Assembly: GCA_028286505.1 (NCBI GenBank)
Contig: JAQBRK010000002.1
Coordinates: 1 to 36,524 of the forward strand
Origin: Parcubacteria group bacterium
GTDB lineage: Bacteria > Patescibacteriota > Minisyncoccia > Phycocordibacterales > Phycocordibacteraceae
Length of the DNA stretch: 36,524 bases
Direction of reading: 5' to 3'
A program made the position numbers and the translations under genes. Below the pieces are notes generated by a model, which saw only the letters and a list, made by a program, of their open reading frames with translations, searched no databases and was not told where the DNA came from. Position 1 is the first letter of the stretch. The number at the start of each line of letters is the position of its first letter. Below, piece after piece: positions 6,155-18,918 of this stretch.

Positions 6155-6871
6155 GTGGCAAACCCCCATAAGCAACAGGCGATAGCGTTTCGACGAGAAG
6201 GTAAAAGTTATCGCGAAATACGAGCACTTTTACCCGTCGCCAAGTCGACTTTGTCGGAATGGTTTAAATCGGTCGAACTGGCCGTGCCGCAGAAGCAACG
6301 AATGACCACCCTACGTCGCGAGGCCGCATTACGCGGAGCGCATGCACGAAGAGATACACGTCTCTTACAAATCCAGAAATTGAATGAGGATGGCAAAAGA
6401 GACATTGGAAAATTAACGGATCGTGAGCTTTGGCTTATTGGTACCGCGCTTCACTGGGCCGAAGGTTCGAAACAGAATATGCGGTCACCAAGCGCGGGGA
6501 TAATGTTTGGAAATTCCGATCACCGTATGCTTTCGGTATTTCTGGCATGGCTACACAGCCAAGGTATTGAAAGGAAAGATATATTTGTTGAGCTCTATAT
6601 CCATATCGAAAGAAGAAAAGATACTGAGAAGTTTAAAACGTGGTGGTCGGAGAAACTGGATATATCGATCGAAAATCTAGACAGAGTTTATTATAAGAAA
6701 GGAAATCCAAAGACAAATCGCGGCAATGTTACTGACTTGTACCATGGTCTATTACGGATTAAAGTGAGGTCAAGCACAACCCTTAACAGACAAGTGAATG
6801 GCTGGATAGAGGGTATTGTAGCTTCCTTGGGAGATCGTCTAATGGTCGGACAAACGCCTTTGAAGCGTTGA
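6155..6871 (+). CDS. HTH-domain protein with LAGLIDADG-like endonuclease motif (tentative)
   Basis: The N-terminal 'GKSYREIRALLPVAKSTLSEWFK' resembles a Hin/resolvase-type HTH. 'ELWLIGTALHWAEGSK' resembles a LAGLIDADG motif. The GTG start lies 6 nt after TATACT (6143-6148). The ORF has no stop until 44 nt inside the tRNA-Gln gene. Confidence 0.45.
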   Translation: MANPHKQQAIAFRREGKSYREIRALLPVAKSTLSEWFKSVELAVPQKQRMTTLRREAALRGAHARRDTRLLQIQKLNEDGKRDIGKLTDRELWLIGTALHWAEGSKQNMRSPSAGIMFGNSDHRMLSVFLAWLHSQGIERKDIFVELYIHIERRKDTEKFKTWWSEKLDISIENLDRVYYKKGNPKTNRGNVTDLYHGLLRIKVRSSTTLNRQVNGWIEGIVASLGDRLMVGQTPLKR

Positions 6872-6898
6872 ATCTAGGTTCGATCCCTAGTCTCCCAG
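6828..6898 (+). tRNA. tRNA-Gln (anticodon UUG)
   Basis: Hand-folded cloverleaf. Acceptor TGGGAGA/TCTCCCA, D stem GTCT/GGAC with a GG loop, anticodon stem AACGC/GCGTT with loop CT-TTG-AA, and T arm CTAGG-TTCGATC-CCTAG. U1-A72 and discriminator G match bacterial tRNA-Gln. No CCA is encoded. Confidence 0.9.
6884..6898 (+). repeat. Direct repeat copy 1 (3' end of tRNA-Gln)
   Basis: TCCCTAGTCTCCCAG is identical to 7038-7052. Confidence 0.85.
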
Positions 6899-7037
6899 CA
6901 AAAGGTGCGGCGCAGCTTTTGCTGTGGAGAAGCGAACGTGGGACGTTCGCGTCTAGAGATCGAAAATGTTGCGAGCATTTTGCGGTGCAAAATCAGCAAT
7001 GTGTACTGCTCCTGTAAGGAGAGATAGTGTAATCACG

Positions 7038-7052
7038 TCCCTAGTCTCCCAG
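7038..7052 (+). repeat. Direct repeat copy 2 (att-like duplicate of the tRNA-Gln 3' end)
   Basis: TCCCTAGTCTCCCAG is a 15/15 match to 6884-6898. No T-arm or 5' half lies upstream, so this is not a second tRNA. Confidence 0.85.
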
Positions 7053-7070
7053 TAAATAGCTCAAAGTGAA

Positions 7071-7090
7071 GGGTCGCCGTGAGGCGACCC
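7071..7090 (-). terminator. Terminator hairpin of the 7101-7454 gene
   Basis: GGGTCGCC-GTGA-GGCGACCC lies 10 nt beyond the stop, followed by a T-rich tract on the minus strand. Confidence 0.6.
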
Positions 7091-7100
7091 AGTGGTGTAC

Positions 7101-7454
7101 TTAGCTCCTCTCGGGAAGAGCACGTACATAATGTTCGATAAAGTCAGGGTTCGGAACCTGCTTGCTTGAGAAGTCGATGCCGCGCTGTCTCAGATGATCA
7201 ACCACCCAGCTTGTCATGTGAGTCACCCAGATCTTTCCGTCCTGAATGAATGCGAAATAGCGGGGTGCGGGTAAGCAGTCGAGCTGTACAAAGGCTATTG
7301 CTACAGCCTCGGAAAGCGGATTATGCTCGCGGATTTCGTATCCGCCAGAACCCATTGGTCCGAATGTGTTGTCCGCATCGAGGAGCAGTTTCTTGAGTGC
7401 GGTACGGTCTCTTGATGTCTCAATCAAGGTGCAGTTGCTAGAAAAGGAATTCAT
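7101..7454 (-). CDS. Hypothetical protein (117 aa)
   Basis: The internal ATG at 7454 is preceded by GGAG, in 'GACAGGAGACGTGTCATG'. The upstream part of the 190-aa ORF covers the conserved non-coding module, so it is rejected as coding. Confidence 0.6.
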   Translation of the reverse strand: MNSFSSNCTLIETSRDRTALKKLLLDADNTFGPMGSGGYEIREHNPLSEAVAIAFVQLDCLPAPRYFAFIQDGKIWVTHMTSWVVDHLRQRGIDFSSKQVPNPDFIEHYVRALPERS

Positions 7455-7465
7455 GACACGTCTCC

Positions 7466-7526
7466 TGTCTGGACAAAACCTAACACATGTTGCAAAAAGG
7501 TTCCAACATCGTCCCAGACGGCCAGC
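7466..7526 (-). repeat. Island intergenic module copy 1 (full core, short distal arm)
   Basis: The minus strand reads GATGTTGGAACCTTTTTGCAACATGTGTTAGGTTTTGTCC. TTGGAA is at 7506-7501, followed by an 18-bp spacer and TG-T-TAGGTT (hexamer 7482-7477). The distal arm is TTCCAACATCGTCCCAGACGGCCAGC. Confidence 0.8.
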
Positions 7527-7545
7527 AATATTGTAAACTTTAAGT

Positions 7546-8241
7546 ATGCGCGACTTACGAATTTTCAAGCGAGGTACATCTGAGCTTAAAAGAATTGTTC
7601 TTACATTCGATGACGGACCGAATCCATATGCCACTCCCGAAATTCTCGACATTCTTAGGCGAGAAAATTGCAAAGCCGCCTTCTTTCTTATAGGAGACAG
7701 GGCTGAAAGCTATCCGGAGATAGTTAAACGAATAGTCGATGAGGGGCACACCATTGGCGGGCACACGCAGAAACACGGAGGCTCAGACGGAAAAGAACCG
7801 TACCATGAGTTCCTTCTTGGTAATCGATCAATAGAGAAGATTAGCAGGAAGCCTGTTCACTACATTCGCGTGCCACAACTCATGTATAACGCGGTTGATA
7901 ACGGCATACCTCGAGTCAAAGAATTGTATGAACAACCTTTACGGGAAAAAAACCTACGGAACGAAATTATCGTAGCCGATTGCTCGATCATCACTCACGA
8001 TTGGTTCATCCGCATCCCTATATGGCTCATGCTTCTAAAAGTGAAAATACAGCTTCATAACGGAGCAATCATCAATATGCATGACGGAAGCGAGAACACA
8101 TCTGAATTAAAAACCCGTGCGGTTCGAACGGTGCGTATGCTACCGACCCTTATTCAACAGATTCGTGCTCGCGGGTTCGAGATAGTGGACATTTCAGAGC
8201 TGGAGCCAGTGTTTATAGTCAAGGAAATTCGTACCCTCTAG
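7546..8241 (+). CDS. Polysaccharide deacetylase (NodB/CE4 family)
   Basis: 'LTFDDGPNPYATPEILDIL' and 'HTIGGHTQKH' are NodB motifs. TAAACT at 7534-7539 lies 6 nt before the ATG. Confidence 0.85.
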   Translation: MRDLRIFKRGTSELKRIVLTFDDGPNPYATPEILDILRRENCKAAFFLIGDRAESYPEIVKRIVDEGHTIGGHTQKHGGSDGKEPYHEFLLGNRSIEKISRKPVHYIRVPQLMYNAVDNGIPRVKELYEQPLREKNLRNEIIVADCSIITHDWFIRIPIWLMLLKVKIQLHNGAIINMHDGSENTSELKTRAVRTVRMLPTLIQQIRARGFEIVDISELEPVFIVKEIRTL

Positions 8242-8306
8242 CCAAGAAGGTTCCAACCCAGCACCAAAGGATATTGGTACTGGACAGGCATCGTCCTGGT
8301 AGCCAG
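8241..8306 (-). repeat. Island intergenic module copy 2 (truncated: distal arm with hairpin insert only)
   Basis: GCCAAGAAGGTTCCAACCCAGCACCAAAGGATATTGGTACTGGACAGGCATCGTCCTGGTAGCCAG. It starts at the stop codon of the deacetylase gene, and the promoter-like half is missing. Confidence 0.75.
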
Positions 8307-8325
8307 TAAGCTTTAGTATGCAAAA

Positions 8326-8347
8326 GCGCGGATGTTTCCATCCGCGC
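8326..8347 (-). terminator. Intrinsic terminator of the 8355-8780 gene
   Basis: GCGCGGATG-TTTC-CATCCGCGC followed by TTTTGC on the minus strand. Confidence 0.75.
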
Positions 8348-8354
8348 CTGCTCG

Positions 8355-8780
8355 CTACATCAGTGAAACTGTCAGATCGAGGTAAGGACCGAGGGCCATA
8401 CCATCGTGCCGATACCACTCGACCTTCATTGTTCGAACCGACTTCTTGCCCCAGGGCACTTCGACCTCAAGACGCACGGCCTCGCGATACTTCCATACCG
8501 CCTTGTGAATCTCAGTCAGAAGCCTGTCTTGGGCGTCCCACCTGAGCTGCATGAAGGTGAGTGCGAGTTCGGTGTGAGTGAAGGCCACGCCATTGGGTTT
8601 CGGCTCCTCAGTCTTCAAGCGCTCCTGCCACTCATCGAACTTCGGTCGTTTATGGATATTGTAGGTAAGACCCGGAAGTGTGCGGTGGAAGACATCGTTA
8701 ATATCTCCGAGCAGTCCAGGGAATTCCCTCAAAAGCTCGGCCAAGGTGCACTTGGCGATAGCTGCTGTCTCGATTCTCAT
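8355..8780 (-). CDS. Hypothetical protein (141 aa)
   Basis: The ATG at 8780 is preceded by GGAG with a 7-nt spacer (GGAGATTGAAAATG). It has its own canonical promoter at 8857-8885. No domain recognised. Confidence 0.6.
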   Translation of the reverse strand: MRIETAAIAKCTLAELLREFPGLLGDINDVFHRTLPGLTYNIHKRPKFDEWQERLKTEEPKPNGVAFTHTELALTFMQLRWDAQDRLLTEIHKAVWKYREAVRLEVEVPWGKKSVRTMKVEWYRHDGMALGPYLDLTVSLM

Positions 8781-8856
8781 TTTCAATCTCCGTTCCTGAC
8801 TCTTGCAGAGATACCCGGGGACTACGCCATCAGGAAGATCTTGGGCATCCGAAAGG

Positions 8857-8896
8857 ATTTAACATTAAATAATGTTATCTGTCAAAGACAGATAAC
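8857..8896 (-). promoter_or_regulatory. Canonical promoter overlapped by two perfect palindromes
   Basis: The minus strand reads TTGACA (8885-8880), a 17-bp spacer, then TTAAAT (8862-8857). The palindromes are TAACATTA-AA-TAATGTTA (8860-8877) and GTTATCTGTC-AAA-GACAGATAAC (8874-8896). Confidence 0.65.
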
Positions 8897-8986
8897 AGGG
8901 TCATTACGGTTACAACATGGTTCTATCAGCGTTCTCGTTACTTTTTAAGAGCTAATAGCATCCTAACCGTTCAGCGAAAAACAGAA

Positions 8987-9021
8987 AATCGCCTACGGGA
9001 GACGATTCTCCGTAGGCGATT
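8987..9021 (-). terminator. Long hairpin terminator overlapping the stop of the 8993-9262 gene
   Basis: AATCGCCTACGGGAGA-CGAT-TCTCCGTAGGCGATT forms a stem of about 15 bp with one bulge. TTCTGTTTTT follows on the minus strand. Confidence 0.7.
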
Positions 9022-9262
9022 TACTCTCGCCCCAACGCCTGAATTTTGCAGCATCGCTACCGAAGTAGACGATGTGGCGTTCTTTTCCGCATCCCGGACA
9101 TTGGTGAGCATCGGGCCCAAGCATCTTTTGTGGGTCATGCTCCCACACGCATCTATACTCAGGGCATCTGTGCTTATGCGTTCGGCGAGGGCGAAATGCA
9201 CCTGCGCCATACAGGGTGGCTACAAATGTTATGAGCACCGCAAGTGCGACAAAATACCACAT
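8993..9262 (-). CDS. Small membrane-anchored zinc-ribbon-like protein (89 aa)
   Basis: The ATG at 9262 is preceded by AGGAGG. N-terminal TM 'WYFVALAVLITFVATLYGAGAF'. Cys pairs CPEYRC and CPGCG. Confidence 0.55.
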   Translation of the reverse strand: MWYFVALAVLITFVATLYGAGAFRPRRTHKHRCPEYRCVWEHDPQKMLGPDAHQCPGCGKERHIVYFGSDAAKFRRWGESKSPTENRLP

Positions 9263-9274
9263 CGATATTCCTCC

Positions 9275-9320
9275 TGGACAGAACCTATCACAAGCTGCAG
9301 AAAGGTTCCAACCCGGCACC
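9275..9320 (-). repeat. Island intergenic module copy 3 (full core, distal arm broken inside the hairpin)
   Basis: The minus strand reads GGTGCCGGGTTGGAACCTTTCTGCAGCTTGTGATAGGTTCTGTCC. TTGGAA is at 9311-9306, followed by an 18-bp spacer and TG-A-TAGGTT (9287-9282). Confidence 0.8.
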
Positions 9321-9362
9321 GAGATCCAGCGAGTTTAAGGTAAAAGACGATATACTGGGGAA

Positions 9363-9800
9363 ATGGCGATCAAGAGATTGGACCACATCAGCGTCGTCGT
9401 TGACGACCTTATAACCGCTACCGATTTTTTCACCGCGCTCGGCATGACGCGCGAAGGCGAGGCGTCGGTCGAGGGCCCGTGGGTGGACCGCGTGAACGGA
9501 CTCGAAGGCGTTCAAGCCGATATCGTTATGATGCGGACCCCGGACGGGCACGGGCGGCTTGAGCTAACGAAGTTTCGCAATCCAAAACTGATCGAGATCG
9601 AGCCGGCGATCATACCGCCGAACGCGCTGGGCCTTCGAAGCGTCATGTTCACCGTCGACAACGTCAATGACGCCGTCGCGCGCATGGGCGCCTACGGCGC
9701 CGAACTTATCGGCGAAGTGGTTGAATACGAGAACCTGTACAGGCTGTGCTATGTGCGGGGTCCGGGAGGCATCATCGTATCGTTGGCCGAGGAACTCTAA
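9363..9800 (+). CDS. VOC/glyoxalase-bleomycin resistance family protein
   Basis: 'IKRLDHISVVVDDLITATDFFTALGM' is a typical VOC N-terminus. TATACT at 9351-9356 lies 6 nt before the ATG. Confidence 0.85.
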   Translation: MAIKRLDHISVVVDDLITATDFFTALGMTREGEASVEGPWVDRVNGLEGVQADIVMMRTPDGHGRLELTKFRNPKLIEIEPAIIPPNALGLRSVMFTVDNVNDAVARMGAYGAELIGEVVEYENLYRLCYVRGPGGIIVSLAEEL

Positions 9801-9858
9801 ATAACGGTTCCGGCGCGAGATGCGTCGATCCGAAAGCGCTCCGTAACAAACAAGCATA

Positions 9859-10263
9859 ATGTCAAAACAAGTCATCATAAATCTACCGGTCAAAGACCGC
9901 GAGATATCAAAGGAATTCTTTACTGCCATGGGGCTTTCACTTGATGCCGAACTTACCGACGAAAACGCCCTATGCTTCGTCGTACTTGAGAACGTTATCG
10001 TTGCGCTGTTGCCCGAACCTCATTTTAAAGAAGCATCCATGGGAGAAGTCGCCGATGCCGCGAAGGTAAATGAAATGCTTATCTCAATCGGGACCGATAG
10101 CAGGGAAGAAGTGAATTCATTGGTCGATAATGCCCTTAAAGCCGGGGGTTCGGAGCTGCACGAGCCTGCGGATATGGACACAATATATGGTCGAAGTTTC
10201 GCCGACCTCGACCACCACAAGTGGAACGTCTTTTATATGCGTGACAGTAAAACCGTAAGTTAG
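9859..10263 (+). CDS. VOC/glyoxalase-like family protein
   Basis: 'INLPVKDREISKEFFTAMGL' and the C-terminal 'YGRSFADLDHHKWNVFYM' are typical of small glyoxalase-fold proteins. Confidence 0.7.
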   Translation: MSKQVIINLPVKDREISKEFFTAMGLSLDAELTDENALCFVVLENVIVALLPEPHFKEASMGEVADAAKVNEMLISIGTDSREEVNSLVDNALKAGGSELHEPADMDTIYGRSFADLDHHKWNVFYMRDSKTVS

Positions 10264-10286
10264 TCGTACAAACTTTGGATAGGCGC

Positions 10287-10322
10287 TATATACAGGCTCC
10301 AACATCGTCCCAGACTGCAAGC
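10287..10322 (-). repeat. Island intergenic module copy 4 (degenerate core, short distal arm)
   Basis: TATATACAGGCTCCAACATCGTCCCAGACTGCAAGC. The distal arm is well conserved, but the promoter-like half is degenerate and abuts the VOC gene stop. Confidence 0.7.
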
Positions 10323-10343
10323 TTTCGGAATATACTTAATGCT

Positions 10344-10940
10344 ATGAAACCAGAGATAGAAGTTAAGTTCCTCGCCGTGGACCATGACGACATGAGAAAA
10401 AAACTTCAGAAGCTAGGTGCAAAATGTACCGCACCCATGCGTCTCATGAAGCGAGTAATACTTGATTTTCCCGACCGGCGACTCCAGAAAGGCGAGCATA
10501 ATTCCTTCGTGCGCGTTCGAGATGAGGGCGACAAGATTACGCTCACGTTCAAGCAATTCAAATCACGCACGGTCGATGGCGCTTACGAGACAGAGACAAT
10601 CGTGAAATCGTTTGACGATACCGTTAACATATTTACATCGATAGGCCTGGAAGTCGTCTCGTTCCAGGAATCAAAAAGGGAAACGTGGGCATATGGAGAT
10701 TATGAAATAGTACTCGATGAGTGGCCGTGGCTTGAGCCTTATATTGAGATAGAGGGTGAATCTGAGGACGGCCTTAGATCGATCGCCGTTGAACTTGGAT
10801 TACATTGGGTCGACGCGGTATTTGGCGGAGTCATGAGAGCCTACCGAGTCCAGTATCCCAATACGGAACCGCACGAAGCCATCGGAAACATGGCAGAAGT
10901 TCGGTTCGGCGCACCACCACCGGACTTCTTGCGAAGCTAA
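10344..10940 (+). CDS. CYTH-domain protein (CyaB/ThTPase-like)
   Basis: The N-terminal 'MKPEIEVKFL' carries the ExExK signature. TATACT at 10331-10336 lies 7 nt before the ATG at 10344, so the longer ORF from 10275 is rejected. Confidence 0.8.
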   Translation: MKPEIEVKFLAVDHDDMRKKLQKLGAKCTAPMRLMKRVILDFPDRRLQKGEHNSFVRVRDEGDKITLTFKQFKSRTVDGAYETETIVKSFDDTVNIFTSIGLEVVSFQESKRETWAYGDYEIVLDEWPWLEPYIEIEGESEDGLRSIAVELGLHWVDAVFGGVMRAYRVQYPNTEPHEAIGNMAEVRFGAPPPDFLRS

Positions 10941-10966
10941 TAACTAAGGCTACCTGTACCAAACAG

Positions 10967-11003
10967 AAGCACCCAGCGGATGGGTGCTTTCCGCTGGGTG
11001 CTT
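10967..11003. terminator. Bidirectional terminator with alternative pairings
   Basis: AAGCACCCAGCGG (10967-10979) pairs with CCGCTGGGTGCTT (10991-11003). The loop contains a second GGGTGCTT copy that can pair instead. It lies between convergent genes. Confidence 0.65.
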
Positions 11004-11012
11004 ACCCAAAGT

Positions 11013-11216
11013 CTAAATCCTGTTAGCGATGATCTGGGCGGCGAGTGAATAAGGCTGACCGGCCTCCCGGTTCTTCTCGGCCTGATCATGGGCCTCGCGC
11101 AAGCGATCATTGAGGTTTCCCAGCGTACCTACCAGATGCGTGCCGGACGCATTGATGAGCTTGCCTTGGGCGTCGTAGTAATGCCAAAGGATGACACAAT
11201 CGACTTCGTGGGACAT
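11013..11216 (-). CDS. Hypothetical small protein (67 aa)
   Basis: The ATG at 11216 is preceded by AAGGAG. The upstream part of the 99-aa ORF lies over the conserved non-coding module. Confidence 0.5.
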   Translation of the reverse strand: MSHEVDCVILWHYYDAQGKLINASGTHLVGTLGNLNDRLREAHDQAEKNREAGQPYSLAAQIIANRI

Positions 11217-11230
11217 GTCCCGACTCCTTC

Positions 11231-11310
11231 TGTCTAGACAGAACCTATCACGTGTTGCAGAAAGGTTCCAACCCGGCACCAAGGGATATTGGTGTTGGGC
11301 AGGCATAGTC
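11231..11310 (-). repeat. Island intergenic module copy 5 (full core, long distal arm with hairpin)
   Basis: The minus strand reads GGTGCCGGGTTGGAACCTTTCTGCAACACGTGATAGGTTCTGTCTAG. TTGGAA is at 11271-11266, followed by an 18-bp spacer and TG-A-TAGGTT (11247-11242). The hairpin is at 11272-11299. Confidence 0.8.
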
Positions 11311-11312
11311 AA

Positions 11313-11338
11313 GCAAAAGGACCTCCCGAAGGAGGCCC
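11313..11338 (-). terminator. Terminator of the Fis-type HTH gene
   Basis: The minus strand reads GGGGCCTCC-TTCG-GGAGGTCC followed by TTTTGC. The stem has one mismatch. Confidence 0.65.
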
Positions 11339-11371
11339 CATTCCATCGTCTTATTCCACAGAAAAGCCTAT

Positions 11372-11584
11372 TTACCCTTCGGGTGCCGGCCTCCTGAATT
11401 TCTTCTCGTTCATTTTGCGATAGAGCGTGCTTCTACCGATCTTAAGACCCCAGGCGGTCTCGCTCATGTTGCCCTGGCTCTTCGTTATGGCGAATTGGAT
11501 TATCTCGTACTCAAGGTCGTCCATGGAACGAAGTTCGCCGTGCGCATCAAGAAGCTGCAGCACGCCTTCTGGTGAATCCGACAT
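11372..11584 (-). CDS. Small Fis-type helix-turn-helix DNA-binding protein (70 aa)
   Basis: The C-terminal 'GNMSETAWGLKIGRSTLYRKMNE' matches the Fis/NtrC-type HTH. The ATG at 11584 lies 7 nt after GGAGG. Confidence 0.7.
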   Translation of the reverse strand: MSDSPEGVLQLLDAHGELRSMDDLEYEIIQFAITKSQGNMSETAWGLKIGRSTLYRKMNEKKFRRPAPEG

Positions 11585-11620
11585 ATGCAAGCCTCCAAGA
11601 TTGATTGTGTGCGTAACCCT

Positions 11621-11675
11621 GGAGAACGTACCACGTATTGTATAAAGGTCCCAACATCGTTCCAGTCAGTCAGCC
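11621..11675 (-). repeat. Island intergenic module copy 6 (full but diverged core, short distal arm)
   Basis: The minus strand reads GATGTTGGGACCTTTATACAATACGTGGTACGTTCTCC. TTGGGA is at 11654-11649, followed by an 18-bp spacer and TG-G-TACGTT (11630-11625). Confidence 0.75.
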
Positions 11676-11740
11676 ATTATTTATTTTCAGACGAGCATGT
11701 CCATGTGTATACTTTGAACATTAACTAATGAATTACTCGT

Positions 11741-12151
11741 ATGCCTAAATGGGACAGCCTCTTCGGTAAGAATCCAAAAAAGACTCCTGAGTCCGCGAAA
11801 TCTACACCCAAGGAGGAAGTTCGGTATGAGCAGCATGTAGCGGTGCGAGATTTTGTTGCTGATCCTGAGCTTGAAAAAATCATTAAAGATATCCGTGACG
11901 AGCAGGTGAGGGCATATGTGAATACTGTTGACGGCGACAGGTCGTTGGTTGAGCAAAACATACAAAAAGCTGACTCCATGCTTGAAGCTCACAAAGACGA
12001 GCTATTAACCTATCTTGAACCGTATCGTTCCTACACCGAGGAATATTTCGCAAAGAAGGATACGGATCGCGAAATCGATTTGCGCAATCATAGCCTTACT
12101 CACGAAGAGAATTCACGCTTCCTCGTCATGACTAGTCTTCTCCGGCCCTAG
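11741..12151 (+). CDS. Hypothetical protein (136 aa, charged/helical)
   Basis: ORF with coding-like composition. TATACT at 11708-11713 lies 27 nt upstream. No domain recognised. Confidence 0.5.
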   Translation: MPKWDSLFGKNPKKTPESAKSTPKEEVRYEQHVAVRDFVADPELEKIIKDIRDEQVRAYVNTVDGDRSLVEQNIQKADSMLEAHKDELLTYLEPYRSYTEEYFAKKDTDREIDLRNHSLTHEENSRFLVMTSLLRP

Positions 12152-12213
12152 GGAAAAACTGCATGGCGTAATTCTTCACGGATTGCCCGAAACCAATTTG
12201 ATATGATTGCCGC

Positions 12214-12828
12214 ATGAGGAAAATCATCACAACGACCTTCGTTACGCTCGACGGTGTTATGCAGGCGCCAGGAGGTCCGGAGGAAGACGCATCGGGCGGA
12301 TTCCCCTATGGCGGCTGGCAAATATCTTTTCCTTCGGGCGAGAAACTGGAATCTAAAATCGGCGAATTCATGAGTGCTCCGTTCGAGCTGCTTCTGGGGA
12401 AGAAAACCTACGATATCTTTGCTTCGTATTGGCCGAAGGCAACAACAGACCTTGAGGTGGCCAATCCCTTTAATACGACGAAGAAATACGTCGTCTCGCA
12501 TCACTCTTTCGAACCTGCATGGAGCAACTCGTTCTGTATTACGGGCGATGTCGTGATGCAACTGCAAAAATTGAAAGAAGAGGACGAACCGGACTTGTGG
12601 GTGTACGGCAGCGGGAACCTCATCCAGACCCTGCTTCAAAATGAGTTGATAGATAGAATGCATGTGTGGACGTATCCGATTACGCTCGGTACCGGGAAAA
12701 AGCTCTTCGCGGAGGGAACTCAAGCTGAAAACTTCAAACTTGTCGATTCGATAGTCTCCACAACTGGAGTAATTTTCGCCACGTACGAACTGGCCGGTCC
12801 GTTTACACCGGATTCGAAAACTTCCTAA
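12214..12828 (+). CDS. Dihydrofolate reductase-like (RibD C-terminal domain) family protein
   Basis: 'MRKIITTTFVTLDGVMQAPGGPEED...GGW' and 'LWVYGSGNLIQTLL' are typical of this family. Confidence 0.85.
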   Translation: MRKIITTTFVTLDGVMQAPGGPEEDASGGFPYGGWQISFPSGEKLESKIGEFMSAPFELLLGKKTYDIFASYWPKATTDLEVANPFNTTKKYVVSHHSFEPAWSNSFCITGDVVMQLQKLKEEDEPDLWVYGSGNLIQTLLQNELIDRMHVWTYPITLGTGKKLFAEGTQAENFKLVDSIVSTTGVIFATYELAGPFTPDSKTS

Positions 12829-12835
12829 AAACACT

Positions 12836-13060
12836 ATGCTGCATACGCTTCCTGCGGATTTTAGAAAGGCACTACATGCTGCTCCTGCGGCGAAAGCAAC
12901 CTGGGACGATATTACGCCGCTCGCGCGTAGCGAATGGATTTGCTGGGTTACGTCCGGAAAGAAAGCCGAAACGAGAGGCATCAGAATAAAAAAAGGCCTC
13001 TCGAAGCTCAAAGGGGGAATGCGCAGGCCCTGCTGCTGGGCTGGGTGCCCGCATCGCTAG
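12836..13060 (+). CDS. YdeI/OmpD-associated family protein
   Basis: 'ATWDDITPLARSEWICWVTSGKKAETRGIRIKK' matches the family's C-terminal signature, judged from memory. Confidence 0.65.
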   Translation: MLHTLPADFRKALHAAPAAKATWDDITPLARSEWICWVTSGKKAETRGIRIKKGLSKLKGGMRRPCCWAGCPHR

Positions 13061-13081
13061 GGCTAATGATAAGATAATCCT

Positions 13082-13480
13082 ATGAATATCATTGCTATCG
13101 TCGTTGCAGCTACCGTCGCATTCGTAAGTGCTTTTTTATGGAATGGTCCGTTATTCGGAAAAGTTGCTCTGAGACTGTCCAATCAGACAGAGCAACCAAA
13201 GCCCAAGGGTTCTCAGATACTTTTGAATTACGTCGTGTTCCTGGTAACCGCTACCGTTATGGCCGGCGTGTTTTGGATAGCATTCGCTTCACCGCTTATG
13301 GGGGATCGCACGTGGTTTCGCGGAATCATTATCGCCCTCTGGCTCTGTCTTGGCTTTATCGTTACCTCGACTTCAATCGAAGTAATTTGGAAGGGGCGTT
13401 CATGGAAACTTTGGGCATTCGAATGCGCATCGGCATTCGTGGCGTTCGCGCTTATGGGTGCGGTACTTGGCGCCCTGTAG
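13082..13480 (+). CDS. DUF1761-like integral membrane protein
   Basis: Four hydrophobic segments. The N-terminal 'AFLWNGPLFGK' is typical of DUF1761, judged from memory. Confidence 0.6.
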   Translation: MNIIAIVVAATVAFVSAFLWNGPLFGKVALRLSNQTEQPKPKGSQILLNYVVFLVTATVMAGVFWIAFASPLMGDRTWFRGIIIALWLCLGFIVTSTSIEVIWKGRSWKLWAFECASAFVAFALMGAVLGAL

Positions 13481-13507
13481 AATCACCGCGAAGCAGATAA
13501 CGCGTTC

Positions 13508-13852
13508 ATGATCGCCGCCATCCAGCTTTTCCTTATCGTGCTTTCGGGTCTTACTATTGCGCTAGCCGATACGATAATCAAGAAAATAAGCAGCGGCCGC
13601 ACGTTCGTCGATGCCTTCTTCAATCCTTGGATGCTGCTCGTTTATATTCTGTATTTTGTGCAGATACTTTTTGCCATATGGGTGTTCATGTATCAAAAAG
13701 AGCTCGGCATATATTCGAACATATTCATCGTTTTTTATTCGATACTCAGCATCGGCTTCGGCATCCTTATTTTTAGGGAACATCTTTCGCTACTTCAGTA
13801 CGCGGGCATCGGGCTCGCCCTCGTGGGAATTCTGATGATGAACAGCCACTAA
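13508..13852 (+). CDS. Small 4-TM DMT/SMR-like (EamA/ArnE-like) membrane protein
   Basis: 114 aa with four predicted TM helices. The size and topology match small DMT transporters. Confidence 0.55.
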   Translation: MIAAIQLFLIVLSGLTIALADTIIKKISSGRTFVDAFFNPWMLLVYILYFVQILFAIWVFMYQKELGIYSNIFIVFYSILSIGFGILIFREHLSLLQYAGIGLALVGILMMNSH

Positions 13853-13871
13853 CGTTGCGTTAGCTCTCGAT

Positions 13872-15266
13872 TTACTTAGTACGAAGCAAGAGCGCGCCGA
13901 GGGCTGCAGCTCCTGCGCACAGCGCTCCAGCAAGGAAGGCCCAGTGGTACCCGCTCGCAAGCGCGTTAATCTGAGTCGAACCGCTCGCGAGCAGGCTCGC
14001 GGTGCGATATGCCGCAAGGCTAGCGAGCACTGCAAGACCGAGCGCACCACCCATCATGAACGACGTGTTGACGATGCCCGAGGCAACTCCGGATTCTTCT
14101 TCAGAGGCGTCTTGCATCGCGGCAAGGAGCATCGGATTGAACGCAATACCGCCGCCGATACCTATCAGGAGCATTCCGGGAAGTACGTCGAGCAGGAAGT
14201 GACCGTCCACTGGAGCGCGCGCAAAGAGAAGCAGCGCCAGACAAGCTAGCGCTAGTCCGATTACGAGCGGCCGCTTAATGCCAAAACGGTTTACGAGATA
14301 CGCGGAAAGCTTGAATGAGAATATCGCCATGATGATGTTACCCGGGAGAAAAGCGAGACCGACTTGTAGCGGCGTGTAGCCGAGCACGGACTGGAGATAC
14401 AGCGCGGAGAGGAAGAACGAGGCGAACATCGCCGCGGCCCACAGAACGCCAAGTACGTTCGCCACAGCGAGATTGTGCAGCTTAAAGAGATGCAGTGGAA
14501 TGAGCGGGTCTTTCACTCTCGATTCGACTATAAGAAAGACTACGAGAAGAACTACTGCGAGAGCGAGCAGGCCAAGAGTCGCGACTGACGTCCACCCGGC
14601 TTCGTTGCCATTCACTATCGCGTAGACCGCAAGCATGAGTGACGCGGTAACGAGCAGCGCACCAGCAACATCAAGACGAACTGCCTCCGGCCGAACGTGC
14701 GCTTTGGGAAGCAGGCGTAAAGAGAAAAGGAACACGAGAATACCGATAGGGAGATTCACGAGGAATATCCAGTGCCAATTGAAGGTACCAGTAAGTATGC
14801 CGCCGAGGAGCACCCCGACGCTGCCTCCTCCCGCCGCAACAAATCCGAAATAACCCATCGCCTTCGCGCGCTCTTCGGGCTCGGTGAAGAGATTCATCAT
14901 GAGTGAGAGCGAGACAGCGGAAACGATAGCGCCGCCGATGCCTTGTAACGCTCGAGCGGCGATGAGCATCCCCTGCGACCACGCGAACCCGCAGGCGAGC
15001 GAAGAAAGAGTGAATACCGTCAGACCGATGAGAAAGAGGCGGCGATGGCCGTACAGGTCGCCGAGACGACCGCCAAGCAGTAAGAAGCCGCCGAAGGTCA
15101 GAACATACGCATTTACTACCCATGCGAGCGCCGAAGGCGAGAAACCGAGGCTGGTGCGAATGGACGGAAGTGCCACGTTCACGATGGTCGTGTCGAGCAC
15201 TATCATGAGCGTTCCGGCGCACAAAATAAGAAGCGCCCACCAGCGGGCGGATGACGATGTATTCAT
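13872..15266 (-). CDS. MFS transporter, DHA2 (EmrB/QacA-like, 14-TMS) family
   Basis: 'LDTTIVNVALPSI' and 'GGRLGDLYGHRRLF' (motif A), plus many TM segments. The ATG at 15266 lies 6 nt after GATAGT (minus strand, 15278-15273). Confidence 0.9.
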   Translation of the reverse strand: MNTSSSARWWALLILCAGTLMIVLDTTIVNVALPSIRTSLGFSPSALAWVVNAYVLTFGGFLLLGGRLGDLYGHRRLFLIGLTVFTLSSLACGFAWSQGMLIAARALQGIGGAIVSAVSLSLMMNLFTEPEERAKAMGYFGFVAAGGGSVGVLLGGILTGTFNWHWIFLVNLPIGILVFLFSLRLLPKAHVRPEAVRLDVAGALLVTASLMLAVYAIVNGNEAGWTSVATLGLLALAVVLLVVFLIVESRVKDPLIPLHLFKLHNLAVANVLGVLWAAAMFASFFLSALYLQSVLGYTPLQVGLAFLPGNIIMAIFSFKLSAYLVNRFGIKRPLVIGLALACLALLLFARAPVDGHFLLDVLPGMLLIGIGGGIAFNPMLLAAMQDASEEESGVASGIVNTSFMMGGALGLAVLASLAAYRTASLLASGSTQINALASGYHWAFLAGALCAGAAALGALLLRTK

Positions 15267-15517
15267 TGCACTACTATCGCAAAAGCTAGTAGGCGAGTAA
15301 AGCTTTTTACCAAGACGAATGTCCGACATGCCACTTATGGCAGTAAGGGCAGCGATACGCATGAACCCCGCCGCCCATACGGCCGGCTTCACGCGCTGCG
15401 CTCCCTTGCGTACGGTGCGTTACTTTTCGCCAGCAAGTGCGATACCTGCGCCGGAAGAAGCGATAAATCATTCCAATCATTGCTCAAGTATACGCACGAT
15501 TGAATAAGACATAGAAC

Positions 15518-15545
15518 AAGACCGTCGGCTGAAGCCGGCGGTCTT
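15518..15545. other. Orphan GC-rich hairpin in a gene-free spacer
   Basis: AAGACCGTCGGC-TGAA-GCCGGCGGTCTT, a 12-bp stem with one G-T pair. There is no flanking T-run and no convincing gene ending nearby. Confidence 0.35.
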
Positions 15546-15705
15546 GGGTTATCTTCAGCAGACACCGTTACGTCTCACCAGACGTGCACAGTGCATGACG
15601 AACCGAACTTACCGTTCGCTCCGGTTCTTCCGGATGAGTTCGTAGAGCATCGGCCTGACATGCATCGGAGCAGTAGAAGAGATTCCCGCCCACAAGAAGA
15701 ATATC

Positions 15706-15752
15706 TTGGCAGGAATTGCAGAAGCCCGTGACAAGGTTCTTCACAACCTATC
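15706..15752 (+). repeat. Possible degenerate seventh copy of the island module (opposite orientation)
   Basis: TTGGCAGGAATTGCAGAAGCCCGTGACAAGGTTCTTCACAACCTATC. It shares the blocks TTGG.A, TGCA, CGTGA.A and GGTTCT with the core, and ACAACCTATC with its reverse arm. Confidence 0.35.
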
Positions 15753-15844
15753 TCCATTTCTGACTCTAGTGAGCATGGCACGCCCACTCCTCTTTTCAAA
15801 CGTAAGCATGCGAACTGTCGGCGCTCGGTATATACTGCACGCAT

Positions 15845-16180
15845 ATGGAAAAATTCATCGCAATATACCGTGCGCCAGCAGCAGCAATGGAGGAGTGGGC
15901 TAAGACGGACCCCGAAGTACGAAAAGCAGCAGAAGCAAAGATGCAGAGCGACTGGCAAGAATGGGCCACTAGTCACAAAGACGCAGTTCAGATGAGTGCT
16001 GGGCTCGGAAAGACCAAGGTAGTTAGTTCCGAAGGAGTGGCAGACGGTAAGAACGACTTGATGCTGTACTCGGTCGTTGAAGCAGAAAACCAGGATGCTG
16101 CGGCGGAGATGTTCGAAGGACATCCGCATTTCGGCATACCGGGAGCGACCATTGAAATAATGACGAGCAAGCCGATTTAA
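15845..16180 (+). CDS. Hypothetical small soluble protein (111 aa)
   Basis: ORF with TATACT at 15831-15836, 8 nt before the ATG. Family not named. Confidence 0.6.
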   Translation: MEKFIAIYRAPAAAMEEWAKTDPEVRKAAEAKMQSDWQEWATSHKDAVQMSAGLGKTKVVSSEGVADGKNDLMLYSVVEAENQDAAAEMFEGHPHFGIPGATIEIMTSKPI

Positions 16181-16182
16181 GC

Positions 16183-16488
16183 ATGACCATTATCCTTTTC
16201 GTTCTCGGATTCGTTCTCGGCGCAGGCGCACTGGTGTTCGCACTTCAGAACAACGAAATCGTTTCGCTTACGTTCCTCGGATGGCAGTTCGATAGCTCGC
16301 TCGCGCTCCTCGTTATCGTGAGTGTGGCCGTTGGTATTCTCATCAGCATGCTCGCATTCCTGCCGTCGGCACTTGCCGGTAGTTTCCGCATCATGGGACT
16401 CAAGAAAGAGAACAAAAAACTCGCAGAAACCCTTGAAGCGCATCAGCAGCCGCAAACCGTCGTCATAACGACCGACCCGCTTCCGTAA
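16183..16488 (+). CDS. LapA-domain (DUF1049-like) membrane protein
   Basis: 'LGFVLGAGALVFALQNNEIVSLTFLGWQF..SLALLVIVSVAVGILI' shows the typical two-TM LapA-domain pattern. Confidence 0.65.
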   Translation: MTIILFVLGFVLGAGALVFALQNNEIVSLTFLGWQFDSSLALLVIVSVAVGILISMLAFLPSALAGSFRIMGLKKENKKLAETLEAHQQPQTVVITTDPLP

Positions 16489-16491
16489 CCG

Positions 16492-16872
16492 CTAAGCAGG
16501 GTTCGCAGAAAGACGCTTTTTCCAAAGCGTATAGGGGACGAACATGAATGCCAAGAACACGAGCGGCATGACGATGTTGATCGGGCTTCCCTGAATGAAG
16601 AACCAGGACGCTGCAGCTCCAATACAATCGATGGCATAGCCTGCAAACGCCCATTCTTTAATCGTGCGGTATTTGTTCTGGAAGATGGCAATTGCACCGA
16701 TGATTTTCGCTACACCGGTAATGGTAAGCACATAGAGAGGGTAGCCGAGCTGTGTTAGGGAATCTGCTCCCGCAGCTACGTGGAATACTCCGGCAAGTCC
16801 GTCGGCAATGAGCCACAAGCAGAGTAGAGAGATGGTTACCCAGTAGAGAATTGAACGTGTCTTTGTTTTCAT
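16492..16872 (-). CDS. DoxX-like family membrane protein
   Basis: 126 aa with four TM segments. 'YWVTISLLCLWLIADGLAG' and 'TGVAKIIGAIAIF' are DoxX-like. CATACT (minus strand, 16884-16879) lies 6 nt before the ATG. Confidence 0.7.
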   Translation of the reverse strand: MKTKTRSILYWVTISLLCLWLIADGLAGVFHVAAGADSLTQLGYPLYVLTITGVAKIIGAIAIFQNKYRTIKEWAFAGYAIDCIGAAASWFFIQGSPINIVMPLVFLAFMFVPYTLWKKRLSANPA

Positions 16873-16935
16873 GGGTGCAGTATGTCACGTTACGCGATTA
16901 TTCTCATGAGGCGCGGATTCACGTAGAATGTCTCT

Positions 16936-17562
16936 ATGATTCGCAAACCCGACGTTAAACGCGAGAAACTCATCCACGTAACCGTGGGGAGCGGCACCGA
17001 GCTTATTATGGAGGAATCGCTCATCGTCGGAGCTGATCTGGGAGAGCGGAAGCTAGAAACGTTGAACTTTACGGAATGCGTCGTTGAAAACAGCTCGTTC
17101 GACGGGGCGAAAATAGCCGAGGCCACCATTTCTGATTGCATACTCGAGAAGTGCAGCTTCACCGCTACGGAGCTATTCGAAACAAGTTTTAATCGCGTAC
17201 TTATAAAGGGAACGCGTTTTCAGGGAGCAACACTCGCCGAATCGGACCTGCGCGACGTGCAGTTCAATGCATCAAAACTCGACGGCGCGAACTTCAGGTT
17301 CAGCAAACTCAAGGACGTCGTATTTGATACGTGCGAAATGACGGAATGCGATTTCCTGCGTGCGGAGCTTGAAGATGTGGAATTCCGCAACTGCAATCTC
17401 ACCGGAGCCCAGTTCGTTTCAGGCAAGCTCGACGGTGTAGCGTTCCCGGGTTCGAATCTCGAAAATCTCCATATAGATAAAACGAGCATCGCTGACGTGA
17501 GCGTGTCTTCGGAACAGGCACTGTATCTTTCAGGCGTGTTCGGTTTACATATTAAGGACTAG
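16936..17562 (+). CDS. Pentapeptide-repeat protein
   Basis: Long run of A(D/N)LxX-type pentapeptides, for example 'ATLAESDLRDVQFNASKLDGANFRFSKLKDVVFDTCEMTECDFLRAELEDVEF'. TAGAAT at 16924-16929 lies 6 nt before the ATG. Confidence 0.85.
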   Translation: MIRKPDVKREKLIHVTVGSGTELIMEESLIVGADLGERKLETLNFTECVVENSSFDGAKIAEATISDCILEKCSFTATELFETSFNRVLIKGTRFQGATLAESDLRDVQFNASKLDGANFRFSKLKDVVFDTCEMTECDFLRAELEDVEFRNCNLTGAQFVSGKLDGVAFPGSNLENLHIDKTSIADVSVSSEQALYLSGVFGLHIKD

Positions 17563-17577
17563 GCATACCATACATCC

Positions 17578-18063
17578 ATGACCGAAGGATTTATTTTGCG
17601 CGAAAACGCTCCGAGTAACATTACGCTCCGTAAAGCAACTCCAAGCGATCTGGCTTTCCTGTATCGCGTTTCTACTGAAGCAATGCGTCCGGTAACGGAA
17701 GCGGGAACTGCAACGCAAAATGACGCGGGTGAAGAATATGAAAAATATAAAGCGAAATTCGACCCGGAAAAAATCGATATCATTCAATACAATGGCAAAG
17801 ATGTCGGGCGGCTCCGCGTAGTGAGATCGGAAGCATCCATCTATGTGGGCGGTATACAGATACTTCCGGAGTACCAAGGAAAGGGTATCGGCACTTCACT
17901 TTTTACCGACCTGATACAAGAATCAATAACGTCGAACCTCCCCATTACGCTTGAAGTACATGATATTAATACGGGCGCACGGGCTTTCTACGAAAACCTC
18001 GGCTTCGAGTACGGCGAAAAGAAAAATGATCAGACCATCATGATATATAACCCGGTAGGTTAA
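17578..18063 (+). CDS. GNAT family N-acetyltransferase
   Basis: Acetyl-CoA binding motif 'ILPEYQGKGIGTSLF' and the C-terminal 'ARAFYENLGF'. Confidence 0.85.
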   Translation: MTEGFILRENAPSNITLRKATPSDLAFLYRVSTEAMRPVTEAGTATQNDAGEEYEKYKAKFDPEKIDIIQYNGKDVGRLRVVRSEASIYVGGIQILPEYQGKGIGTSLFTDLIQESITSNLPITLEVHDINTGARAFYENLGFEYGEKKNDQTIMIYNPVG

Positions 18064-18144
18064 TGAACCCTTCATCCGGGGTGTGGCATTGTCCCGTTCA
18101 TGCGCGCTCGGCCGCGCATTGTCTTATTACCTAGTACCACCACA

Positions 18145-18903
18145 ATGAAACAATTCAGCGCACTCGCTCTCTCGCTCACATTCGGCCTTTCGGGCGCAGG
18201 CACCGCGCTTGCGGCCAACACAGTTACCGGTGCCGTTCAATCCGGCACTACTATAACCACAGGAACGTCAAACGGTTCCTCAAGTGCGAATTCCGGTACG
18301 AACGTCTCGGGCGGCACGAACGGTTCTGACACCTCCGTATCCGGTAACGGTTCGTCGAACACCACTAGCGGCAGCGCAACCTCCGACACTTCGTCCTCCG
18401 CAGGTCTCAACATAAACCTCATGCAGGGCGATGTTCAGAATTCGACCACCGGCGTTACCGTTACCAGTGCTTTGGACGTAACGACGAACGACTCGCTTTC
18501 CGCCTACGCGAACTCCGTAGTAAAAGGTGATACGAACGTCGACGCCGTAGCGGTAAATGACCAAGGTATGGATATGACGTATCGTCGTCCTGCTCATTTC
18601 CTCGGATTCATCCCTGCTTCGATGAAGGTCAGGGTGCATCTCGATAACAATGGTGCCGTATCGGTGCACTACCCTTGGTACGCGTTCCTTATGAGCGGTA
18701 CGGAGGCGCGCGCCGATCTTGAGAGCAAGCTTCAGGCGCAAGTTACGTCGATGCAGTCTGCAGAAGCTACTGCTTCGGCTAAGGCTTCTGCCTCCGCTTC
18801 AAGCATGACGAACCGCATGCGCGCGATGATACTGGAGAAACTCCAGGCCGCGCTTCATGCAGGCGTCTCCGCTGATGCTTCGGCAAGCGCAAATAGTCAA
18901 TAA
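18145..18903 (+). CDS. Secreted Ser/Thr/Gly-rich protein with a conserved C-terminal domain (paralog of 23008-23673)
   Basis: Signal peptide 'MKQFSALALSLTFGLSGAGTALA', a low-complexity S/T/G/N region, and a C-terminal block 'MTYRRPAHFLGFIPASMKVRVHLDNNGAVSVHYPWYAFL'. Confidence 0.7.
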   Translation: MKQFSALALSLTFGLSGAGTALAANTVTGAVQSGTTITTGTSNGSSSANSGTNVSGGTNGSDTSVSGNGSSNTTSGSATSDTSSSAGLNINLMQGDVQNSTTGVTVTSALDVTTNDSLSAYANSVVKGDTNVDAVAVNDQGMDMTYRRPAHFLGFIPASMKVRVHLDNNGAVSVHYPWYAFLMSGTEARADLESKLQAQVTSMQSAEATASAKASASASSMTNRMRAMILEKLQAALHAGVSADASASANSQ

Positions 18904-18918
18904 TAGAATGTCTCTGAT

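Follow-up and report, generated by a model that had tools for sequence, protein, structure and literature searches.

A tRNA-Gln-derived repeat that bounds small gene cassettes in Parcubacteria is probably an arm of a large serine recombinase attachment site

Which process sets the same short module between one accessory gene and the next, always in the same orientation, is the question raised by the Parcubacteria contig JAQBRK010000002.1. The window analyzed here is this one complete 36.5-kb contig (36,524 nt), in which serS, dus, dnaX, an M10 peptidase gene and a 238-aa open reading frame (ORF) lead up to a tRNA-Gln gene (6828-6899), followed by accessory genes and, from ~20.3 kb, by housekeeping genes. 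A preliminary description of the contig read the module as a promoter or operator that delimits gene-sized units between 7.4 and 11.7 kb. The evidence assembled below indicates that the module is probably the P arm (~33 nt) of the attP and attR attachment sites of integrative elements that carry a gene for a large serine recombinase (LSR) and whose target in Parcubacteria is the 3' end of tRNA-Gln genes.

All six copies of the module are recovered where the preliminary description had placed them, and all on the same strand, with two nhmmer models. A model built from the four complete window copies finds 11281-11227 (E 1.8e-17), 7519-7463 (3.4e-17), 9320-9269 (1.1e-15), 11667-11613 (1.8e-14), 10315-10285 (0.012) and 8266-8244 (0.024); a model built from foreign copies only finds the same six, and none besides, in 36.5 kb, the best E value over 20 shuffled windows being 0.046. 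The motif AAGGTTCCAAC occurs 6 times at no more than one mismatch, against 0.47 expected, with 5 of the 6 occurrences inside the array, and a repeat search of the window reports the families D1-D3, with D2 at module 3 and D3 at module 2. The claim that the modules delimit gene-sized units is likewise supported. Further candidate copies, at 12896-12913, 15706-15752 (a proposed seventh copy, undetected by either model) and 20285-20308 (around a proposed 13-nt fragment at 20286, E 0.12-0.14), score at chance level and were discarded.

The invariant unit of the module is its 33-nt 'left' part, which comprises the distal arm and the -35 box (TTGCTGGCAGTCTGGGACGATGTTGGAACCTTT). An exact degenerate pattern was searched in one genome per species (185,579 species); the matches lie in contigs of Parcubacteria/Patescibacteria metagenome-assembled genomes (MAGs), plus two unclassified MAG contigs. 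In metagenomes, a 25-base module pattern matched at least 120 contigs. The census of related loci (labelled L###; ~180 were fetched overall) covered 128 loci, 615 kb in total, in which nhmmer detected 321 module copies. Their orientation is uniform in 84 of the 85 multi-copy loci, and their spacing is narrow, with a median of 545 bp and an interquartile range (IQR) of 417-670 bp; arrays contain up to 8 units in a row, and one locus (L002) has seven copies 360-650 bp apart. Only 52 of the 321 copies (16%, about one in six, including four in the window) are complete, whereas the other 269 consist of the left part alone. Across 242 unique left-only copies, conservation begins sharply at TTGCTGG and stops sharply at AACCTTT. 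No junction in L002 lacks the left part, be the next gene co-oriented, equipped with its own promoter, or on the opposite strand with its stop codon overlapping the module, which is not promoter behaviour. Nor is the module found upstream of most genes; the copies are confined to arrays. The full-text literature searched, which is an incomplete collection, yielded a description of neither this repeat nor cassette arrays anchored on tRNA-Gln in bacteria of the candidate phyla radiation (CPR).

The preliminary description left the array unconnected to the tRNA-Gln gene, but the array is anchored there. The gene (UUG anticodon; plus strand; detected with ARAGORN and Rfam) ends in GGTTCGATCCCTAGTCTCCCAGC, a B-type, attB-like sequence that forms the anchor at the proximal end of the array. 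Upstream of it, the order serS-dus-dnaX-peptidase-tRNA-Gln is syntenic across genomes, at 29-80% amino acid identity; downstream of it, we detected no synteny across related genomes. A hairpin directly 3' of the tRNA (6896-6924, plus strand; inverted repeat I22 with 14-nt arms, 93% complementary), which we read as the tRNA terminator, makes up the B' flank together with the A-rich start AAAAGG. Farther on, at 7030-7056 (plus strand), lies a partial tRNA-Gln 3' end of hybrid make-up, module-like on the left (ATCACGTCCC) and tRNA-like on the right (TAGTCTCCCAG), and the first cassette follows directly. Within this partial copy, 15 nt repeat 6884-6898 exactly (2 matches, where 0.04 would be expected). 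Two other loci (L010 and L024) likewise have a tRNA, 84-161 nt and then a partial tRNA, and in L038 the partial tRNA follows the tRNA after ~20 nt.

The same anchor recurs across the family. Among the 25 related loci that bear a tRNA, 22 have tRNA-Gln; in these, the tRNA gene and the module are on opposite strands, and the 3' end of the tRNA faces the array. When the last 24 nt of tRNA-Gln are used as a model, B-type sequences are identified in 51 loci, many of them outside an intact tRNA. Where anchors and modules occur in one locus (34 anchors), their relative orientation never differs, and 32 of these anchors lie at the same array end. Anchors that consist of a pseudo-tRNA-Gln 3' end, with no intact tRNA, were found at other conserved positions of the chromosome in L002 (3981-4001), L025 (6326-6349), L076, L127 and L163 (2978-2999 and 8552-8573). 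These sites lie, for example, beside M23 peptidase-gltX-murG (L002 and L025) or beside bipA, and each heads an array of its own; one 674-kb contig contains three of them (L025, L078 and L085).

The arm of the module and the tRNA end are homologous. The left part has the complement GGTTCCAACATCGTCCCAGACTGCCAGC, whose alignment to tRNA-Gln 3' ends, for example GGTTCGA-----GTCCAAGTCTGGCAGC, requires one gap of 5 nt and scores 22, a value attained by only 1 in 1000 shuffles (maximum for shuffles, 13.3 +/- 2.5). The promoter half does not resemble the tRNA body, its score being matched by 653 of 1000 shuffles, and the whole 60-nt module was rejected as a pseudo-tRNA, the similarity being limited to the left part. 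An Rfam search, which returned the tRNA gene only, gave no RNA structure for the module. Read on the tRNA strand, the arm copies the T-arm and acceptor end of tRNA-Gln: the inner CC.AG.CTGCCAGCAA is kept, whereas GGTTC is moved 5 nt outward. The distance from GGTTC to CAGC is accordingly 28 nt in P-type copies versus 23 nt in B-type copies, with 12 of 14 inner positions identical, in what amounts to one half-site. The distal arm and -35 box of the supposed promoter module are thus a 33-nt unit homologous to the 3' end of tRNA-Gln. In serine integrases, the motif recognized by the zinc-ribbon domain is shifted 5 bp outward in attP half-sites compared with attB half-sites (PMC3783163), which is the same offset as the outward shift of GGTTC in the P arm.

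The enzyme that fits such a site is encoded at related loci. Proteins of L113, L040 and the L038 type combine Resolvase, Recombinase and zinc-ribbon domains (PF00239, PF07508 and PF13408), and 1780 members of the family are counted at E<=1e-30. When the Pfam families of 132 large ORFs near modules are ranked by frequency, the top 25 include no recombinases other than LSRs. The LSR gene of seven loci (L113, L038, L169, L170, L171, L172 and L178) terminates at, or a few codons inside, the 3' end of tRNA-Gln or a pseudo-anchor, and a co-oriented P arm 0.4-7 kb upstream bounds the element. Whole LSR elements have the order P arm-cargo-Rep-LSR and occupy the anchor-proximal position. In L113, the P arm is followed by AAAAAGTGCGAAGCAGTTTTTGC, which is identical at 23 of 27 positions to the sequence just beyond the window tRNA (AAAAGGTGCGGCGCAGCTTTTGC), so that the element with its module sits between the tRNA and its native downstream flank.

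An apparently free form of such an element exists as well. Five contigs from different samples (L173-L177), 5751 or 5726 nt long, are circular permutations with terminal overlaps of 55 or 30 nt. The 5.7-kb circle, which is of CPR origin, encodes, besides the LSR, a rolling-circle Rep (REP_ORF2-G2P), a protein of 404 aa that has a Shedu SduA_C domain, and two proteins of 526 and 75 aa to which no function is assigned; it contains no tRNA. Its P arm stands exactly at the 3' end of the LSR gene, where integrated copies have the tRNA end, and the predicted attP of the circle (whose LSR is P0026) lies around ...GTCGAGC|TGGTGGCAGTCTGGGACGATGTTGGAACC. The junction of LSR end and P arm in the free form thus corresponds to attP, that of LSR end and tRNA in the integrated form to attL, and that of P arm and old flank to attR, which makes the module the probable P arm of attP and attR.

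The complete copies nevertheless look like promoters, as the preliminary description had noticed. In 48 unique complete copies, TTGGAA, TGCAA, 4-5 variable nucleotides, TG-n-TA-nnn-T and CTGTCYAGA follow in this order, always with a Shine-Dalgarno (SD) sequence and a co-oriented ATG 15-45 nt downstream. The -35/-10 geometry is TTGGAA-N17/18-TAnnnT with TG at -15/-14 and a variable spacer; the -10 hexamer appears as TAGGTT, TAACTT, TACGTT or TAATTT, with the middle varying and T1, A2 and T6 kept, the classic pattern for such a box. Behind the complete window copies lie SD-led minus-strand ORFs (starts 7454, 9262, 11216 and 11584), as first described, although the distance is 14-40 nt and not 19-40; each of these four genes has a terminator at its end. 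The box spacing of the preliminary description also stands (TTGGAA, 18 nt, TAGGTT), except that its wording, 18 bp and then TG, is off by 3. By these signatures, the complete copies are very probably outward extended -10 promoters, formed by TTGGAA inside the site and the right half, and would fire toward the adjacent gene. A sigma-54 promoter was rejected, given that TGGAAC-N-TGCA yields GG-N9-GC and not GG-N10-GC.

A promoter half is, however, the minority feature of the family (52 of 321 copies), and this bears on the possibility that the module is nothing but the promoter or operator of a regulon, copied between intergenic regions, with the truncated copies being decayed promoters. The convincing extended -10 signature of the complete copies, always in front of an SD sequence and ATG, and a palindrome in the 5' untranslated region (5' UTR; CTGTCTAGACAG) that could bind a regulator speak for this explanation. 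Yet 269 of the 321 copies lack the -10 half while retaining nearly invariant 33 nt with sharp edges, many copies are followed by the 3' end of an opposite-strand gene, the orientation is fixed relative to the tRNA-Gln anchor, and the same 33 nt stand at the 3' end of the recombinase gene in the free circular element; promoter function would account for none of these features. The GAACCT/AGGTTC inverted repeat on which an operator had been proposed does not hold up: its partner positions vary freely, and the folding is no better than that of shuffled sequences. As the sole explanation of the module, a promoter or operator is contradicted, and we consider it very improbable.

How an attachment-site arm would generate the arrays can be sketched as follows. 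If strand exchange takes place at the CAGC end of the site, that is, at the very end of the tRNA, each new unit would land between the tRNA (or pseudo-tRNA anchor) and the earlier contents, and would leave its own P arm on the distal side. Repeated insertion would then produce a one-orientation array of anchor, unit, P arm, unit, P arm. In the four complete window copies, the right half together with TTGGAA would act as a promoter that drives a minus-strand gene with its own terminator. An LSR presumably acts on the array sites, and the CAGC end is the likely position of the crossover. A crossover at the GGTTC (T-loop) end, under which a cassette would consist of promoter half, gene and next site, was rejected because the anchors are intact and proximal, because the P arm of L113 abuts native tRNA-downstream DNA, and because the free form joins the 3' end of the LSR gene to the CTGG end of the module.

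Several observations weigh against this assignment. The 36.5-kb window itself encodes no recombinase, and the association with LSRs, which is direct for large elements, is by analogy only for small cassettes. In small cassettes, a single half-site is conserved, and the 50 nt beyond the presumed crossover are almost without information; LSR elements show, by eye, a weak TTTTTGG/TTGGA symmetry, whereas a classical LSR attP is roughly dyad-symmetric. The variable N of GACNGCC was rejected as the central dinucleotide, as it differs among the copies of one array and from the anchor. Neither a circular mini-cassette nor a pair of strains differing by exactly one cassette was seen among the loci fetched. 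Finally, a generic sigma-70 scan does not pick up the putative promoters of the module, since TAGGTT and TATAAT agree in only 3 of their 6 positions.

Could the repeats instead serve homologous recombination after DNA uptake, or act as an uptake signal, with no dedicated recombinase? CPR bacteria are thought to rely on DNA uptake, repeats of ~33 nt flank every unit, and the cassette content is extremely diverse. Uptake signals, however, are dispersed genome-wide, whereas the module is confined to anchor-linked arrays; direct repeats would mostly yield deletions; and the tRNA-Gln anchor, the 5-nt-shifted copy of the tRNA end and the place of the module in the free LSR circle would all be left unexplained. 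Of the explanations that we weighed, this is the least probable.

The window array consists of six units of 367-1023 bp, each with 1-2 genes, distal to the tRNA-Gln gene and the hybrid partial tRNA. Two of the units recur elsewhere. Window 7063-7526 is 82% identical at the nucleotide level to 1616-2079 of L163. There, the unit belongs to another array and has another anchor and other neighbours: it occupies the most distal position among three cassettes, and the array ends at a pseudo-anchor next to bipA. Window 8309-8886 has counterparts with the same limits and 76-79% nucleotide identity at two loci: in L168, from a syntenic genome, the unit is part of an array next to tRNA-Gln; L164 contains no modules. 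Units of this kind thus occur in different places, with their limits at or next to sites. Within the first 128 loci, cassettes are shared only between identical genomes sampled twice, and no homologues of ten window proteins (nine cassette proteins, including the Fis-type helix-turn-helix (HTH) protein, and ORF 11741-12151) were found in the 128 related loci.

The one-orientation arrangement of cassettes of ~0.5 kb and the typical cargo of the array, namely, VOC/glyoxalase, deacetylase and small proteins of no assigned function, with GNAT and pentapeptide-repeat genes further along the variable region, might suggest an integron-like array lacking its integrase (CALIN-type), with unusual attC sites that fold as single strands and a tyrosine integrase located elsewhere; GTTGGAA also loosely resembles the GTTRRRY core. 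The module has no R''/L'' inverted partner of GTTGGAAC, however, its single-strand folds (z -0.26 to -2.28) are no better than those of shuffled sequences, and the would-be pairing positions vary without compensation. No IntI-type integrase is encoded in the window, and Phage_integrase is outside the 25 most frequent families of the 132 large neighbouring ORFs. The cassettes lie in both orientations with promoters and terminators of their own, and the site is a homologue of a tRNA end tied to an LSR. We regard this explanation as even less credible than that of a copied promoter. The statement of the preliminary description that the module is not an integron attC, a REP or a CRISPR repeat is upheld; a dispersed repeat of the REP or MITE type was rejected because the unit is not palindromic and its copies occur only in single-orientation anchor-linked arrays.

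The cassettes without a recombinase may have been captured in trans or may be trimmed remains of whole elements. The latter is the main alternative: with the same sites, small cassettes would never have been mobile by themselves but would be remnants of whole LSR elements after loss of the recombinase and replication genes. Whole P arm-cargo-Rep-LSR elements do exist at the anchor-proximal position, and the cassettes have no conserved second half-site. Prochlorococcus tRNA-linked islands offer a parallel for this mode of decay: in Tycheposon islands, which lie beside particular tRNA genes, older elements are displaced outward by the arrival of newer ones, partial tRNAs are left scattered, cargo occurs as 'plug-in' cassettes, and a minority of the elements have large serine recombinases (bioRxiv 10.1101/2020.12.28.424599). 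Against decay stand the tight unit sizes (IQR 417-670 bp), the clean boundaries with up to 8 consecutive units, the standard promoter half shared by 16% of the units across genomes, and the strong conservation of the P arms, as expected of sites under continuing selection. The ORF census of the arrays gave only intact-looking LSRs as recombinases; pseudogene fragments were not specifically searched for. On balance, the decay model seems unlikely to us; the small cassettes may have been captured in trans.

Taken further, capture in trans would make the system a serine-recombinase counterpart of the integron, in which cassettes of ~0.5 kb with a 33-nt P half-site are captured serially at tRNA-Gln-type anchors. 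We advance this tentatively, as a possibility that falls short of an even chance. The anchors would include the pseudo-tRNA copies, the cassettes would often come with a standard outward promoter, and the LSR itself would travel as an anchor-proximal cassette or on the 5.7-kb Rep-encoding circle. The layout resembles that of an integron but appears to depend on a different enzyme. Common to both are a fixed insertion end, one-orientation cassettes of ~0.5 kb with one site each, diverse cargo and arrays that are sometimes without a recombinase. The arrays described here differ in having no tyrosine integrase and no folded attC hairpin, in cassettes with their own promoters and genes in both orientations, in a site that is conserved in sequence across genomes and derived from a tRNA, and in a recombinase gene that travels as the anchor-proximal unit in full-size elements.

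The closest architecture, and a match of architecture alone, is that of composite SCC islands. In SCC and SCCmec, the large serine recombinase Ccr inserts elements at the 3' end of rlmH/orfX, insertions stack in tandem with the same short direct repeat in one orientation at each junction, and pseudo-SCC units lack a recombinase. Here, too, there are an LSR, a target at a gene 3' end (that of tRNA-Gln), a P-arm repeat at each junction and units without a recombinase; it is by layout only that we set the system beside Ccr. The differences are that the units are very small, with a median of 545 bp, and hold single genes, each with its own promoter and terminator, that the target is a tRNA gene or pseudo-tRNA anchor, that the repeat is a 5-nt-expanded copy of the target, and that the hosts are CPR bacteria. 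Phage serine integrases (A118/LI, Bxb1 and phiC31) share the Resolvase, Recombinase and zinc-ribbon domains, a circular free form in which attP adjoins int, hybrid sites after integration, and half-sites of P and B type that have the inner motif in common but differ by 5 bp in the position of the outer one. Unlike in the phages, strong conservation is seen here on one half-site only, and repeated insertion at one anchor into long arrays is atypical for phages. Most Tycheposons are elements of several kb that use tyrosine recombinases and have true partial tRNAs at their flanks, whereas the arrays examined here have a dedicated modified copy of the tRNA end every ~0.5 kb, many copies with a standard promoter.

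The features of the window array can now be given in order, all modules being on the minus strand. A spacer of 139 nt plus the hybrid partial tRNA end runs to 7056 and is bounded by the hybrid site. Cassette 1 (7057-7531) has a body at 7063-7454 (minus strand) with a 117-aa ORF of no assigned function (7101-7454) and a terminator at 7071-7090; it is bounded by the complete module 1 (7462-7531), with the P-arm site at 7494-7531 and the promoter half at 7462-7493 (TTGGAA-18-TTAGGTT with TG). Cassette 2 (7532-8312) contains the polysaccharide deacetylase gene (7546-8241, plus strand; PF01522, E 4e-25), with a -10-like TAAACT 6 nt before the ATG, and is bounded by module 2 (8244-8312), a long-form site with the P arm only, in which GGAACCTT occupies 8247-8257, the insert 8258-8283 and the distal CATCGTCCTGGTAGCCAG 8289-8306. 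Cassette 3 (8313-9335) holds two small genes. One lies in a self-contained minus-strand unit (8309-8886) with a palindromic promoter region, an ORF of 141-143 aa (8355-8786) and, read by eye, a terminator-like hairpin at ~8320-8350; the other is an 89-aa ORF (8993-9262, minus strand) with a terminator at 8981-9013 and its promoter from module 3. That module (9268-9335) counts as complete, with the full promoter half and GGTTGGAACC, and its distal P arm is broken inside the hairpin insert.

Cassette 4 (9336-10324) carries two plus-strand genes identified with Pfam, a glyoxalase/VOC gene (9363-9800) and a second VOC/bleomycin-resistance-like gene (9859-10263), and ends at the left-only module 4 (10294-10324; GCAGTCTGGGACGATGTTGGAGCCT), detected by the foreign-copy model with E 1.3e-09. 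In cassette 5 (10325-11310), a CYTH-domain gene (10344-10940, plus strand) and a 67-aa ORF (11013-11216, minus strand) are separated by a bidirectional terminator (10967-11003, repeat I20); the complete long-form module 5 (11227-11310), with its hairpin insert at 11272-11299 and a 16-nt palindrome in the 5' UTR (TTCTGTCTAGACAGAA), forms the boundary. Cassette 6 (11311-11677) encodes the 70-aa Fis-type HTH protein (11372-11584, minus strand; Pfam HTH_8, E 3e-10), with a terminator at 11318-11339, and is bounded by module 6 (11613-11677), complete but the most diverged (TTGGGA ... TGGTACGTT), which is the last and most distal site of the array.

The breaks of the truncated copies, at the deacetylase stop codon and just after the VOC gene, are present as first described. 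So is the hairpin insert of the long form, which is 26-28 nt long instead of the 31 bp originally given: it lies in the P arm at 8258-8283 and 11272-11299, with a broken copy at 9313-9322, and is placed exactly at the 5-nt expansion of the P arm, after GGTTCCAAC. In the ~180 fetched loci, the insert is absent except in L009, a 1-kb contig with an identical deacetylase gene. The drop in G+C content reported for this region is real but modest, with 0.465-0.495 at 6-9 and 10-13 kb and 0.544 at 9-10 kb, compared with 0.56-0.575 at 0-3 kb.

Some further observations concern gene starts and neighbouring genes. At window 8860-8900, a near-perfect palindrome TGTTATCTGTCAAAGACAGATAACA lies beside TTAACATTAAATAATGTTA, upstream of the 141-aa gene 8355-8786, and is conserved with that gene in L168 and L164; it looks like an operator. 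Where a gene on the tRNA strand begins right after a site, no SD sequence precedes it and a -10 box of the TAnACT type lies only 6-7 nt from the ATG, as at window 7526-7548 (TAAACT-6-ATG), 9336-9365 (TATACT-6-ATG) and 10318-10346 (TATACT-7-ATG), and the same is seen in many related loci; this suggests leaderless mRNAs. Directly upstream of tRNA-Gln, the 238-aa ORF (6155-6871) has a ~50% identical counterpart in the same position in L071 and L090, and homologues of it cluster next to tRNA-Gln in L014 and L047; Pfam gives no match. Beyond the last site, window 11741-20300 is non-syntenic accessory DNA with RibD_C, DUF1761, MFS, LapA-like, DoxX, pentapeptide-repeat and GNAT genes, and the foreign-copy model recognized no sites between the last module and 20.3 kb, though this stretch is also variable. 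A homologue of the RibD_C gene is found in L114, directly after the first site next to tRNA-Gln. Two neighbouring ORFs of ~918 aa occupy 29081-34605, the first with weak HerA/DUF87 and TraG-D_C matches and the second with no match; they may be a pair of DNA-translocation or conjugation-like ATPases.

A further set of matches was kept out of the census. In 33 viral contigs (L130-L162; 66% G+C), the match is a 24-nt identity within a C5-methyltransferase-like coding sequence, in an unrelated context, and these contigs were rejected as module loci. The 24-nt core GTCTGGGACGATGTTGGAACCTT there encodes ..VVWDDVGTFDG..PCQPFS.., and the same nucleotides in the free circular LSR element (L173, 2214-2263) encode ..VAVWDDVGTGL* at the C terminus of the recombinase; the chance expectation for such a shared 24-mer is roughly 1e-3.

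CPR bacteria have tiny genomes, and how they gain genes is little understood. A 33-nt motif together with a tRNA-Gln-like anchor reveals their stacks of accessory genes directly from sequence, and the site links the variable regions of these genomes to one recombinase family and to a small free circular element. The motif can also serve as a probe for the flexible gene pool of Parcubacteria in metagenomes, as the contigs matched by the 25-base pattern illustrate. If the cassettes are captured in trans, bacteria with minimal genomes would possess a dedicated platform for gene acquisition; this platform would represent a second, mechanistically independent invention of the integron principle and would provide a compact natural attP/attB pair with a built-in promoter.

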